From NCBI RefSeq assembly GCF_044704955.1, contig NC_091980.1, positions 129,580,001 to 129,644,000 on the forward strand: DNA of 64,000 nt. The letters are read 5' to 3'. Numbering within the stretch: the stretch's first letter is position 1; every line of letters begins with the position of its first letter. Source of the DNA: Pristiophorus japonicus (lineage: Eukaryota). Below are positions 3,195 to 59,982 of the stretch, one piece after another. Position numbers and translations under genes: made by a program. The notes under the pieces were generated by a model. It was given only the letters and a program-made list of their open reading frames with translations. It ran no database searches and was not told the DNA's origin.

Positions 3195-6100
3195 ATGGAA
3201 TCTCAAGTGCATCAGAACTACCCCAAGGACTGTGAAGCTGCTGTCAACCAGCAGGTCAACATGGAGCTCTGTTCCTCCTATGTTTATCTCTCCATGGTGA
3301 GTCTTATATTTCTGAGCACTTCACAATGGAACCTGTGCAATGTGAATTTACTACATTCTGTGCTGTATCTGGCTCACCCCTCACTTGATGCAGTGAATTC
3401 ATTTGTTAAAGCTATACTATAGAAATTATCACCTTGTGTATTCTTTAACAAACTACCTCTGTTCCATGCAGTACCTGAGCCATATTCGGTGAATCTTAAT
3501 GATTCTTTTTCCTGGGCTCTTGTGAGCTTGTAGTTGAAGTTTGTTTGTAATACACTCTGCTTTCAATGCATGGAATTCAGAATTTATATCCTCATTTCCA
3601 AATCACTCCATGGCCTTTCCCTACCTTGCTGTTTGCAATGAGGGGATTCAGTCTTCAAATTAGAACCAGACAATTTAGGAGGGAAATCAAGAAGCAATGG
3701 TGGAAGTTTGGACCGTATTCTCTCCCTGCTTCCCATATTCCACCCACCCAAATCTGTGGGTGCCTGGGCAAGGTTTTTGTTGGGTAAGGGTATCAAGGGA
3801 TTAGAACATAAGCAATAGGAGTAGGCCATTTGGTTCATCTCTTCCCTCAATTCCACCTTCCCGCACTATCCCCTTGGTCCATAATTTCTTCAGTTTCCCA
3901 AAAATAAATTGACCTCCTGTCTTGAATATACTCAATAACTGAGCATCCACAGCCCTCTGGGGTAGAGAATTCCATAAATCATCACCCTCTGAGTATTGAA
4001 ATTTTAACCTTTCTCAGACTTTAATGGCCAACCCCTTATTCTCCAACTATGACCCCCTGGTTCTAGATATATCCAGTTAGGATAAGCTTTAACCCTGTCA
4101 AGCCCCTTAAGAATTTTGTTCAATTAGATTTGCACCTCATTCTACTAAACTCTAGAACATTGGCCTAGTCTACTCAATCTCCACATAAGGTAATCTCCTC
4201 ATTCCAGGAACCAGTCTCGTGAACTTTTGTTCCATCTCTAAGGCAGGTATGTCCTTTGTTTGGTAAGGCGACCAGAATTATACAAAATACTCCAGATGTG
4301 TCCATACCAATGCCCTATATTATTGTAGAAAGAGTTCTTTACTCTTGAAATCTAATCCCTTTGTAACAAATGCTAACACCATTTGCTGTCCTAATTACTT
4401 GCTGGATAAATGGTGGTAAGCTGCAGATCTGACCATTGAATGGTCGAACAGGTTTGAGGGGCTGAATGGCCTACTCCTGTTCCTTACGTTCTTGACGACC
4501 TCGATTTTAGCTACCAGTTTTTGCCTTTGTCTTTTCTCTAACTCCCTTTTTGATTTATTGGTGGTAAAGCCTTCAGCCATTTCCCCCCCTACTCGGTGGA
4601 ACTCTCCCTTAATCCCTCTGCTTTCCTACCTTGACCTCAAACTCTGAGGGGTGGTATCTGGTTGTCTGTTGGAATACCTTGATGTTTAGTGCTGAAGGTG
4701 TGAAATGAATGCTGCTTAGTTTTGGTTCCACGGGATGAATGTAGCCAGTAACAATTGGGCCTGATGTACTGTATGAATTGTGCACTGTGACTAGATCTCT
4801 ACTTTTCCAGTAGTGCCCCATGTATAGCCTGAACAAAATAGATTGGGGTCAGTAAGCCATCATTGGTGTGGTACTGTGTATTATTAATAAATAATAAATA
4901 ATAAATAATAAATAATAAATAAATAAAAAATCTCACTTCTAAAGCTACACATGAGCATTAGGTGCCAAGATTAAGGTTTAGATTGGAGCATGTTCTATCA
5001 AAGCTGAATTGGTAACCATGGGATGATACTGCACTGAAGGAGGTCATTTGGCCCATCATGCCTGTGCTGACTTGAGTGGAGCTATCCAACTAGTCTCTCT
5101 CCCCTGCTTGATCTCAGCCTTACAGATTTGTCTGTATTAAGTCTTTTTTTTTAATGTTGCCATTTAATTTACTTCCACCATCCTTTCAAATTGCCCATGC
5201 AGTTAAAAATAACCAAGTTTCCTCTAGTCCTTGTCCTTTTGCCAATCACTTGATTTTTCCATTAGCCAGTTTCCCTATTGCTAGGGGATTATCCACTCTC
5301 TCTACCACATTAGTGAAGTCAATGGGCTGGTGCTCGCCTGTGTAACATTGTACATGGAAATTCAGGGAGACTTTAAATCCTTTTGCCGGAAGCAAAATTG
5401 AGTTTGGCTTTATGTACAATACCCACAATAATAGGTCTGCCATGTGATGCCCAAAAATTCTGATCTCTCCATAGTCCTTCTACTTTGACCGGGATGATGT
5501 TGCCCTGCGTCACTTTGCTGAGTTCTTCAAGGAGCAGTCACATGAGCAATGTGAGCATGCTGAGAAACTGATGGAATTCCAGAATCAGCGTGGAGGCCGA
5601 ATCATCTTGGCGGACATCAAGGTTTGGTTCAATCAAGGAGTGGCCTCCTATCTGGATCCCCTAAGATTGCTTGTTTCAAATACCTCCTAAAGGAATTGGC
5701 TCCATGGTTGTGGTATTGGAATGCAGTAATTCTATATTCCTGTGACATTGTTTATGGTAACATTGATGTCTGGTTGCTTTTTCACCCCTATTTTCCTTGT
5801 ACTGTCTCTTGTTTAGTTTGTTCCATTGTAAGTGAACTGCCTGTGACTTTCTGCTTCAGAAACCAGAGCAGGATGAGTGGAGCAATGGTCTGGAGGCGAT
5901 GCAGAGAGCTCTGCAGATGGAGAAGAATGTCAACCAGAGTCTGCTGGATCTGCACAAACTCTCCACTGGGAGCACCGACCCTCATGTAAGTTCCTCATGG
6001 GGTTCTAGTTAAGTTGGAGGTGGTGGATTGTTGCTGTCCTTGAGCTGTTTCAAAAGTGCTCCATGCCCAATAGCTTTGTTTTTGGCGGTCTCTCCTGGGT

Positions 6101-57116: not shown

Positions 57117-59982
57117 ATGGTTTTGCAAGATGGTCACCAGGACTGTGAGGATGCTGTCAACAAGCAGATCAACATGGAGTTTTATTCCTTCTATGTTTAT
57201 CTCTCTATTGTGAGGTTTGTGTTTTTGCCACTCCACAATGGAGACTATGTAATGTGAATTTATGAAATCCTGTGCTGTACCCAGTCCACCTAAAGCTTTC
57301 ATCAATTGTCTGTACTCAGTGGCTTCTCCCTCAATCTCTTTTCTTCCCTACCCTGTGACCTTCACTAAGCACCTCCACTTCTGAGGGGTTCTCAACTTTT
57401 ATTCTGTCGTATCTGGTTCTCTTCTGAAATGCTTTTTTGTGTTGATGGCGCCAAATTCATGCTGCTTGTGGTAGTTTTAATTCCTTGACATGAATGTAGT
57501 CAGTTAAGCTGAAATAGTTCAAAATTGAAAAACTAGATGAATTCTGCACTGTGACGAGGGGCCCAAATTTCCCCATGAGTTGCACTTTTTTTTGGTGTAA
57601 CCTGGTTTTTTTTCTGGTATCTTTTAGTTGCAAATGTGGCCATTTAATTGTTAGGTCAGTTTTTTTTTTCAAAAGGGGGCGTTCCCAGCCACTTACACCA
57701 TTTATGCCAATTTGGCCAGAAAAAAGTTGTACAAACTAATGTATGGTTCCGCACAGAAAGACCTTACTTAGTTAAAGAATCGGTGCAAGTAACTACATTT
57801 AAAGCACAAAGTAATAAGCGATTAGTTAACAAATAAAATAGAAGGAACCCTGCCCCTAAAGCACCAAGACCAAAGTAATAATCAATAAACAAATAAAAAA
57901 AAACTCGTAACTTGGGGAATGCAGCGAGCTGCCGATGAGGGAACCTATTTGGCCAGGGATGGTGTACTTTGGCCCCTTGCACAGCTGCAGCGCTTGTTTG
58001 CTGAAACGGCCTGCCAGGAGCTACAGAACATGTGTGCAGACTCTAGCACGCATGTGCAGAGGTCGCCGCAATGTTCTCAGTACTGGGACCTAGCTCCGCC
58101 CCCCCCCTCTTTGTTCTGCACCACGCCAGCTCCACAGATGGTCTGAGAATCGGCCACGATCGCAGGGAAATTTTTCGGCGCTGCTTGAGGTAAAATGTTG
58201 GTGGGGGGGGGGGTGCTTGGAGGTGCATGGGAAAACACCATAAGGTCAAATTTGCCCCCATTATCTCTACTTTTAAGGGGGTTGCTCTGAGTTCCAATAC
58301 TGCCCCTCAACTAGCCTGTACAAAGGAGATCTGTCAATAAACCATGATTTATTAGTGTGTGACTGGTGACCAGGGTATAAATCTTTACAATTCTTTCTCT
58401 AATTTCCAGAGCTAAACAATGAATATTGGGTGCCAAGATTAAGGGTCTAGTTTTGAGCATGTTCAATCAAAACTGAATTGGTGATCATGAATGATGCAGC
58501 ACAGGAGGCCATTCAGTCCATTGTGCCTCACTGACTGTTTGGTGGAGCGATACAACTCGTCCACTCCATGTTCCCATAGCCTTCAAATTTTTGCAAATCA
58601 CTAAGTTTCCATTTGTCAGTTTTCTTGCAACTGGAGGTGAGATTATCCACCATCTTTACCAGGTTAGTTGAGTAGGTGCTAGTTTCCATAACTATGTACA
58701 TACAAGTTCAGTGAGACTGAGCCCTTGAAAGCAAGAAGAGTTTGGCTTCATGTACAGTGCCCATGATAAAGGGTCTGCCATGCAATAAACAACTACTCTT
58801 CTGATCCTTCTGCAGTTCTTCTACTTTGACCGGGATGATGTTTCCCTGCGTCACTTTGCTGCGTTCTTCAAGGAGCAGTCACATGAGGAATGAGAGCATG
58901 CTAAGAAACTGATGGAATTCCAGAATTGGCATGGAGACCGAATCATCTTGGCAGACATCAAGGTTTGGCTCCATAAACGAGGCGCCTTCTGTCTGGCTCC
59001 CCTTAGACTGATTGTTCACAATACATTCTAAAGCAGTTGGTTCCAGTTTACAGCACAGAAACCAGTCATTCGGACAAACTGGTCTATGCCAGTGATTAGG
59101 CTCCAGATGTCTCCTCCCACCTTGCTTTATCTAGCAACATATCCTTTTATTCCTTTTTCCCTTGTGTACTTAATTAGCTTCCCCTTCAATATATCAATGC
59201 TATTCATGTCATTAATTTGACACCAGTGATTGATGGCTTAATGCAGTAATTCTATATTCTTACACATTGGTTCATGTTAACCTAGACTTCTGATTGCATT
59301 TTTTTCATCCTGAATTCCTTAATACTTGTTTGTTTAATCCATTGTAAAGGACTTACCTCTTCAGAAACTGGAGCAATGGTCTGGAGGCGATGCAGAGAGC
59401 TCTGCAGATGGAGAAGAATGTGAACCAGAGTCTGCGGGATCTGCACAAACTCTCCACTGGGAGCACTGACCCTCATGCAAGTTCCTGATGTGGGTTTCTG
59501 GGTAAGTTGGAGGTGGTGGAACCTTGCTGTCCTTGAGCCTATTGCAAAGATCCCTGCTCAATAGCTTCATGTTGGGATGTCTTTTGTGGTGGGTAGGTGG
59601 TAGGAAGGGACAGGAGGCTGGCCTACTGTGGACATTGACGAGTAAATGTGCCCCAGCAACTATCGTGCAGCAAGTTTAATCTAAATGGTGCAGTAATTCC
59701 ATTGATTTTTAATCGCACCACTTAACTATCCTCCAGTTCAAGAGGATTACAATCCAAATTCTCGAGGGGTACGTTCCAATGTTCCTTGAGATCTGCTCCT
59801 GGCCCTAACTTGTTTCCCTCTTTCAGTTGTGTGACTTCCTGGAGACCCACTACTTGGATGAACAAGTGAAGATGATCAAGAAGCTTGGAGATCACATCAC
59901 CAACCTGAAGAGACTGGGAGCCCCTGAGAATGGCATGGGGGAGTACCTGTTTGACAAGCACACCTTGGGGGAGAGCGATTGA
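57117..59982 (+). pseudogene. Ferritin pseudogene FT5 (paralog of FT3)
   Basis: Exons 57117-57209 (9 nt shorter), 58816-58962 (TGA at 58891-58893), 59365-59476 (14-nt deletion, GC donor), 59827-59982 (intact). Confidence 0.92.
57558..58259. mobile_element. Non-autonomous DNA transposon (MITE-like) in FT5 intron 1
   Basis: Imperfect terminal inverted repeats GGGGCCCAAATTT / AAATTTGCCCCC. Absent from the FT3 intron at ~22105. Confidence 0.65.

Follow-up and report, generated by a model that had tools for sequence, protein, structure and literature searches.

The 64,000-nucleotide stretch of the genome of the sawshark Pristiophorus japonicus analysed here (contig NC_091980.1, positions 129,580,001 to 129,644,000 of the forward strand; hereafter the window) carries five tandem copies of an intron-containing ferritin gene. 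These probably form a 57-kb slice of a shark-wide array of H-type ferritin genes, one that would turn over by unequal crossing-over and supply ferritin in bulk from mRNAs whose iron-responsive element (IRE) has decayed. The window is a further example of an array already published for sharks, to which it adds a species and, in the decay of the IRE, one lead worth following. Translated and nucleotide searches with the first copy located five gene starts, named FT1 to FT5, all on the plus strand (ATG at 3195, 11056, 21107, 30919 and 57117). Each copy has four exons, of 102, 147, 126 and 156 nucleotides (nt) in the intact FT1 and FT3, divided by introns that are all in phase 0 and are bounded by GT-AG save for one GC donor in FT5 and an acceptor lost from FT4; the vertebrate H gene likewise has four exons with the same phases. 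FT1 and FT3 are open, encoding 176 amino acids each, and FT2, FT4 and FT5 are broken, which confirms an earlier sequence-only reading of five gene starts on one strand with identical exon phases, two copies being open and three broken. The orphan last exon that the same reading had added does not stand: there are exactly five exon-4 matches for five starts, and the supposed orphan (37708-37835) is exon 4 of FT4, cut off by a 3.6-kb insertion, so that a sixth gene was rejected. A low-stringency scan of the window yielded no further ferritin exon, only matches of 16-19 nt at two places, and no flanking single-copy gene was recognised in the window.

The growth of the array is recorded in two duplicated blocks on the plus strand. 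Block A (1..6016) is colinear with 25346-34104 at about 82% identity and runs past the left window edge; its start lies within an old long interspersed nuclear element (LINE), where it is 81-84% identical to the copy at 25346 versus 70-78% to other copies of that LINE. Block B (14229..24222), which comprises the 3' end of FT2, the spacer and FT3, is colinear with 37708-60139 at about 83%. Ancestry also switches within genes. In the 5' part of FT4, 258 sites favour FT1 and 52 favour FT2, against 8 and 26 in its exon 4 and 3' untranslated region (p 2e-12 for the switch); once an inserted LINE is removed, the 3' flank of FT4 is 85.7% identical to that of FT2 across the whole query, the top score of the four flanks tried. 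The 5' part of FT5 sides with FT3 over FT4 at 154:36 sites, compared with 11:59 around exon 3 (p 3e-22). FT4 therefore joins an FT1-like 5' half to an FT2-like 3' end, and FT5 an FT3-like 5' half to an FT4/FT1-like exon 3 region, mosaics that fit unequal crossing-over or long conversion tracts. Conversion or homogenisation limited to exons is weakly indicated inside the window: FT1 and FT2 differ at 0 of 37 four-fold sites, the only strong sign of it, and this pair shows a synonymous divergence of 0.12 against 0.21 in non-coding sequence (p 0.03), being the one pair in ten below 0.05. Pseudogenes stand beside intact copies and duplicates differ in age, as expected of birth-and-death evolution, whereas the old cross-species lineages that this mode would also leave are not seen, the copies clustering instead by host order. 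The colinear blocks, the mosaic FT4 and FT5 and the three pseudogenes bear out the proposal of a tandem array formed by unequal crossing-over with birth and death. That the array continues beyond the window, as had been suggested, follows from the left edge, which is colinear with 25346 onward, and from at least 96 distinct array-type protein records of P. japonicus, a figure that includes isoforms and merged models and is not a count of loci.

By sequence similarity the copies are H-like. Record P0170, 99.4% identical to FT3 (one residue off), matches chains in the PDB along 175 residues, with E values of 3e-91 for H and 4e-87 for M and without gaps in the five alignments shown, and no entry named L chain occurs among the best 60 of the 217 PDB sequences matching it; the loss of the ferroxidase centre that marks ferritin L is also not found, the ligands of FT3 being intact. 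Window ferritins are 74-75% identical to vertebrate H chains and 72% to bullfrog M, and thus not nearer to the latter, although they share with amphibian and fish ferritin M the length of 176 residues, the start register, the ferroxidase centre and, in most copies, acidic residues at 57, 61 and 64. Glu occupies these three sites in most array copies (FT3 has Lys57), and shark fth1a also has Glu57. A 57-row tree, from which L chains and named teleost M chains were left out and in which the order among ferritin groups is without support, places the window genes inside a clade of multi-copy shark ferritins together with one sawfish and one chimaera record (100/99). The vertebrate H group, including skate and chimaera fth1a, is separate (83/83), as are a single-copy chondrichthyan ferritin (100/99) and the tetrapod M-type chains, and one teleost record named fth1b grouped with fth1a and not with the array. 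Orthology to FTH1/fth1a was rejected on these placements, even though FT3 shares with these proteins the ferroxidase ligands E27, Y34, E61, E62, H65, E107 and Q141 and the channel residues; membership of their own clade, Met144 and the lack of a canonical IRE here set the array copies apart. Shark fth1a is conserved (median identity 96.6% over 11 records) and, where stated, lies on a different and larger contig than the array, the copies of which have a median identity of 92% in the sawshark (58 records of 176 amino acids). Met occupies human position 144 (residue 141 of the FT proteins), which lies near the ferroxidase site, in 87 of 91 readable sawshark records and 117 of 122 from other elasmobranchs, compared with 0 of 43 rows outside the elasmobranch array subclade of the 57-row tree.

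The same clade unites the window proteins with array records from ten further shark species that were sampled. A second tree, of 60 rows of randomly chosen copies, was built with five records set aside beforehand, and its bootstrap had yet to converge completely. Support in it is strong for carpet sharks, for sawshark, for sevengill and for catsharks as one group each and weaker for houndshark and for horn shark, and mackerel sharks are not grouped; six of the seven sampled shark groups thus form one side of a branch, four with strong support, and a quick tree of 157 rows broadly agrees. These patterns fit an old array whose copies have become largely order-specific through fast turnover or concerted evolution. 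Large tandem ferritin arrays have indeed been published for sharks. Sahm et al. (bioRxiv 10.1101/2024.09.09.611499) give 155 FTL and 179 FTH1 copies for the Greenland shark, in clusters that are syntenic with those of the white shark and of which the largest is expressed specifically in ovary. Yang et al. (PNAS 2026, PMC13214024) describe 59 tandem 'FTH1b' copies, five of them with exons 3-4 only, report raised copy numbers in sharks generally, and hypothesise a link to ferroptosis; the 2025 preprint of Yang et al. held no ferritin passage. The window resembles that FTH1b array, a large set of tandem multi-exon copies on one chromosome of which some are truncated; its proteins fall into one clade with other sharks' multi-copy ferritins, and it differs in coming from another species. 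The surprise that the sequence-only reading drew from a mammalian baseline, in which extra ferritin copies are mostly processed pseudogenes, is not supported.

In vertebrate ferritin mRNAs the 5' leader normally bears an IRE marked by a bulged C and a CAGUGN loop (PMC5654065, PMC5561112), and the leaders of the array retain only relics of it. In the FT1 leader, 3151..3173 (plus strand) has the C bulge at 3157, four of five upper-stem pairs and, at 3165, A for the loop G. All 14 nt of 3151-3164 match the first half of a ferritin IRE as printed in PMC5561112; this match, between TATA and ATG, is the sole one in the window, has no equal in 100 shuffles, and stops exactly at the loop G, which is the site of the human L-ferritin mutation G41C of hyperferritinaemia-cataract syndrome (PMC2994742). 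Plus-strand relics with the same G-to-A loop change lie in the leaders of FT3 (21062..21084, at the same aligned position, with one of five upper-stem pairs), FT4 (30875..30897, bulge C at 30881, three of five stem pairs) and FT5 (57072..57094, bulge C at 57078, four of five consensus loop letters, three of five stem pairs). None of these four folds better than shuffles, and the consensus loop is absent from all five 110-nt leaders. Rfam gave no family at the gathering threshold in the window, nor any IRE at E<=10 in two stretches of the FT1 leader, a search made with no positive control. The structure-only score (best 8 of 11, with 317 of 63,972 positions scoring at least 8) is not significant, and the 17-nt motif with three mismatches occurs at chance level (1.0 expected), so the argument depends on the exact match of 14 nt. 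The sole full-score IRE-like hairpin of the plus strand, at 16727 in the FT2-FT3 spacer, lies outside any ferritin leader and is likely due to chance. The common loop change suggests that the IRE was lost before the duplications that gave FT1, FT3, FT4 and FT5, and binding by the iron regulatory proteins (IRPs) would have been lost from the array leaders with it. The array may then be translated without iron control, as has been proposed for the egg-associated yolk ferritin of the snails Biomphalaria and Lymnaea, which lacks an IRE and is read as free of iron control (PMC10799875). The comparison is an analogy only: snail yolk ferritin is secreted, with a signal peptide and a 42-residue insertion, whereas the shark copies, on alignment only, are colinear with H from residue 2 and have neither. 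The terms IRE, concerted and gene conversion are absent from the main texts of Sahm et al. and Yang et al., and a search by title and abstract start, which mostly does not cover subscription journals, found no paper on the IREs of shark array ferritins.

The likely working copy is FT3 (21107..24077, plus strand; exons 21107-21208, 22652-22798, 23495-23620 and 23922-24077), which has an altered TATA-like box at 21025, an upstream ATG at 21054 and AATAAA at 24190. By alignment to human H numbering and with the ferroxidase and channel residue sets listed in PMC13026281, it retains all five core ligands (E27, E62, H65, E107, Q141), Y34, E61 and the three-fold channel residues H118, D131 and E134. 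Private changes were counted relative to the base that most of the five copies share, leaving out the first 10 codons; FT3 has 15 that are synonymous and 9 that are nonsynonymous (w 0.19, p 1e-4) and is, on these counts, under purifying selection. Comparable figures are 6 and 7 for FT1 (w 0.38, p 0.07), 9 and 10 for FT4 (w 0.36, p 0.025), 7 and 15 for FT2 (w 0.69) and 7 and 14 for FT5 (w 0.65), so that no copy among the five exceeds the w of 1 that would denote positive selection. All the core ligands are present in 78 of the 85 P. japonicus records that could be read (96 in all) and in 75 of 85 such records from other elasmobranchs (132 in all), counts drawn from annotated proteins among best hits and cluster samples. 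Because FT3 is under purifying selection and ferroxidase ligands are conserved, dosage is favoured over the immune-style diversification that had been offered beside it, and a dosage role for the array is plausible.

FT1 (3195..6505, plus strand; exons 3195-3296, 5475-5621, 5860-5985 and 6350-6505; TATA at 3114, AATAAA at 6609) is open, and has Gln in place of the ferroxidase ligand E62 and Lys in place of E134 in the channel, changes which, from established ferritin chemistry, would impair iron oxidation and entry; it is probably a ferroxidase-impaired copy on its way out. Its protein is 99.4% identical (one residue off) to P. japonicus record P0017, which keeps Glu at E62; P0017 and P0170 may be very recent block duplicates elsewhere or a second haplotype. 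A further P. japonicus record, P0370 (263 residues), matches FT1 residues 1-174 at 100% and continues into FT2-type exons 3-4, its exon-4 portion being identical to the FT2 of the window. On these matches the stretch is the locus that the P. japonicus records represent, or else a copy that cannot be told from it. The FT1-FT2 fusion (3195-14348) is probably an annotation merge, with read-through splicing as a possible alternative.

The three pseudogenes, all on the plus strand, have each been broken in their own way. FT2 (11056..14348; exons 11056-11156, 13323-13469, 13722-13847 and 14201-14348) has lost 1 nt from exon 1 and 8 nt from exon 4 and has stops at 13428 and 13446. A TATA of its own lies at 10980, and the promoter and leader of FT2 show no detectable relation to the other four copies (16-131 of 300 shuffles score equally well). 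This lack of homology covers 10800-11055 and 11180-13300, that is promoter, leader and most of intron 1, in a gene whose exons are 84-96% alike to the others, and may mean that the array contains a second class of promoter or that the 5' region was replaced. FT4 (30919..37835; exons 30919-31020, 33408-33554 and 33946-34071, and a truncated exon 4 at 37708-37835) has lost its TATA and has a stop at 33531; its intron 3 is recognisable for about 33 nt only, the rest having been replaced, along with the acceptor and 28 nt at the start of exon 4, by an insertion. The exon 2 stops of FT2 at 13446 and FT4 at 33531 are the same CGA-to-TGA change, which both copies may have inherited or which may have arisen twice by mutation of a CpG. 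FT5 (57117..59982; exons 57117-57209, 58816-58962, 59365-59476 and 59827-59982) carries a 9-nt deletion in exon 1, a stop at 58891, a 14-nt deletion in exon 3 and the GC donor of intron 3.

Taken together, the preferred reading would have unequal crossing-over between similar neighbours grow and shrink the array, leaving the block duplicates and mosaic genes seen in the window, and retroelement insertions and point lesions kill copies there, while selection would maintain the working copies as a pool that serves total output and not variety. An old array with such a turnover of members would give each shark order its own set, as in the proteins sampled. With the IRE decayed in four of five leaders here, output would follow gene number and transcription and not the iron level, and the bulk supply would probably go to the ovary, if the sawshark resembles the Greenland shark. 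An egg-provisioning role is suggested by that shark's ovary-specific cluster, by the abundance of ferritin transcripts in vertebrate ovaries (PMC1488847) and by the analogy with snail yolk ferritin.

Several observations weigh against this account. A high share of the copies here is dead or damaged, only two of five being open and one of these being without a ligand, whereas in the Greenland shark more than 85% of the copies are reported to be full-length; this speaks for weak selection on any single copy. Open and broken copies pooled differ only at p 0.064, the broken FT4 still has a w of 0.36, and the ligand counts above miss pseudogenes. The IRE decay comes from a single window, without a shark fth1a leader for control, and in selection experiments IRP1 is reported to bind some of the variant loops. 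As for the ovary, FTH1b transcripts occur in fin and blood (Yang et al., PMC13214024), lymphomyeloid epigonal tissue surrounds the ovaries of sharks, and ferritin is listed as liver-unique in a dogfish assembly (PMC5568229), so that 'ovary' need not mean oocyte.

A rival reading is nearly neutral turnover in a recombination-prone region that keeps making copies, few of them functional, where copy number and IRE decay alike would be by-products of relaxed selection. Three of five copies are broken, FT1 has two damaging-looking changes, FT3 itself has a changed TATA box and an ATG upstream of its start, FT2 and FT5 evolve at a w of 0.65-0.69, and the retroelement load is dense. Yet the array persists in every shark order sampled and in synteny between Greenland and white shark, most annotated copies keep their ligands, and the same loop change in four leaders, both open genes included, points to one old event; we regard neutral turnover as unlikely. 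Less likely again is an immune or stress family, engaged in iron withholding or ferroptosis control in blood or lymphomyeloid cells and possibly made up of diversified subunits. Transcripts in fin and blood, the epigonal tissue that ovary samples may include, the differences among sawshark copies (the median of 92% given above) and a divergent subtype with Lys at E62, apparently on the array contig of Stegostoma, would all suit such a family; none of the five copies, however, has gained amino-acid changes in excess, the copies group by host order and not in old cross-species subfamilies, and Sahm et al. call the cluster ovary-specific. That assembly or retained haplotypes have inflated the copy number is scarcely credible. 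FT1 and FT3 each have a public near-twin one residue off (P0017 and P0170), which could be a retained second haplotype, but the five copies lie far beyond allelic divergence (3-25% in exons, 12-30% in flanks) and have private insertions, as the sequence-only reading had argued, and the Greenland shark array recurs in two independent assemblies.

The retroelements of the window were identified by Pfam matches in 14 of 35 frames scanned, apart from one match to ferritin itself and two stray weak ones. The compound insertion at 34105..37707 (no strand assigned) replaces most of intron 3 and the start of exon 4 of FT4, retains remains that code for reverse transcriptase (RT), abuts exon 4 with a retroelement end at 37708, and includes a young LINE 3' fragment 98.8% identical to 10464-10884. 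Three copies of this young 3' end (10464-10943, 34102-34525 and 38018-38494), at 95-99% identity, record recent activity within the array. A LINE with an esterase-type first open reading frame (ORF1), endonuclease and RT lies on the minus strand at 38020..41538, inserted in the 3' flank of FT4; the flanks joined across it gave the 85.7% match to FT2 reported above. Upstream of FT5, a plus-strand long terminal repeat (LTR) retroelement at 47300..56069 has terminal repeats of about 200 nt that are 90-95% alike, protease-RT remains and a nested LINE at 51003-54490; because no such element stands at the corresponding site before FT3, it is younger than the block B duplication. A LINE of the same family as the nested one (60593-63535) begins about 600 nt after FT5, and 63876-64000 is similar, on the opposite strand, to a part of the LTR element. 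A 33-nt minisatellite occupies matching places in block A and its copy, with 3.4 copies at 1776-1887 versus about 7 at 27642-27928.

Some public records bear on the wider family. P0108, P0109, P0260, P0261, P0262 and P0264-P0267 constitute a third, apparently single-copy chondrichthyan ferritin lineage, which may be the neighbour or parent of the array, possibly on the same contig in several species. P0255 and P0256 of Stegostoma, apparently from the array contig, represent a more divergent subtype with Lys at E62, L-chain-like at that site, which does not occur in the window. These two are among thirteen records from four galeomorph sharks with the exon order 1-2-3-2-3-4, the others being P0003, P0201, P0212, P0199, P0203, P0209, P0004, P0204, P0206, P0207 and P0211. 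True six-exon ferritins were rejected for these in favour of merged gene models, which are likelier, the halves not differing from ordinary copies in a comparison where two control rows were shifted by one residue; with introns in phase 0, real genes of this order could nevertheless exist. P0090, P0102, P0200 and P0297 are vertebrate-like ferritins under bacterial names, likely through mislabelling or contamination, and P0090 groups with chondrichthyan ferritins.

The expansion of ferritin genes was tied to the longevity of the Greenland shark; the sawshark records and the order-specific sets suggest instead a general shark trait with fast turnover. Should the decay of the IRE hold across the array, it would offer a direct and testable reason for the copy number, namely that output is set by gene dose and not by iron feedback, a state otherwise familiar in vertebrate ferritin from a human disease mutation. 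More tentatively, and with some doubt, the array could be a vertebrate counterpart of yolk ferritin that evolved in sharks, in which an early loss of the IRE, dozens to hundreds of tandem copies and iron-independent loading of the oocyte would go together with a chemistry tuned by the lineage-specific Met144 next to the ferroxidase site. If so, the array would reflect the provisioning of eggs, and not longevity or ferroptosis.

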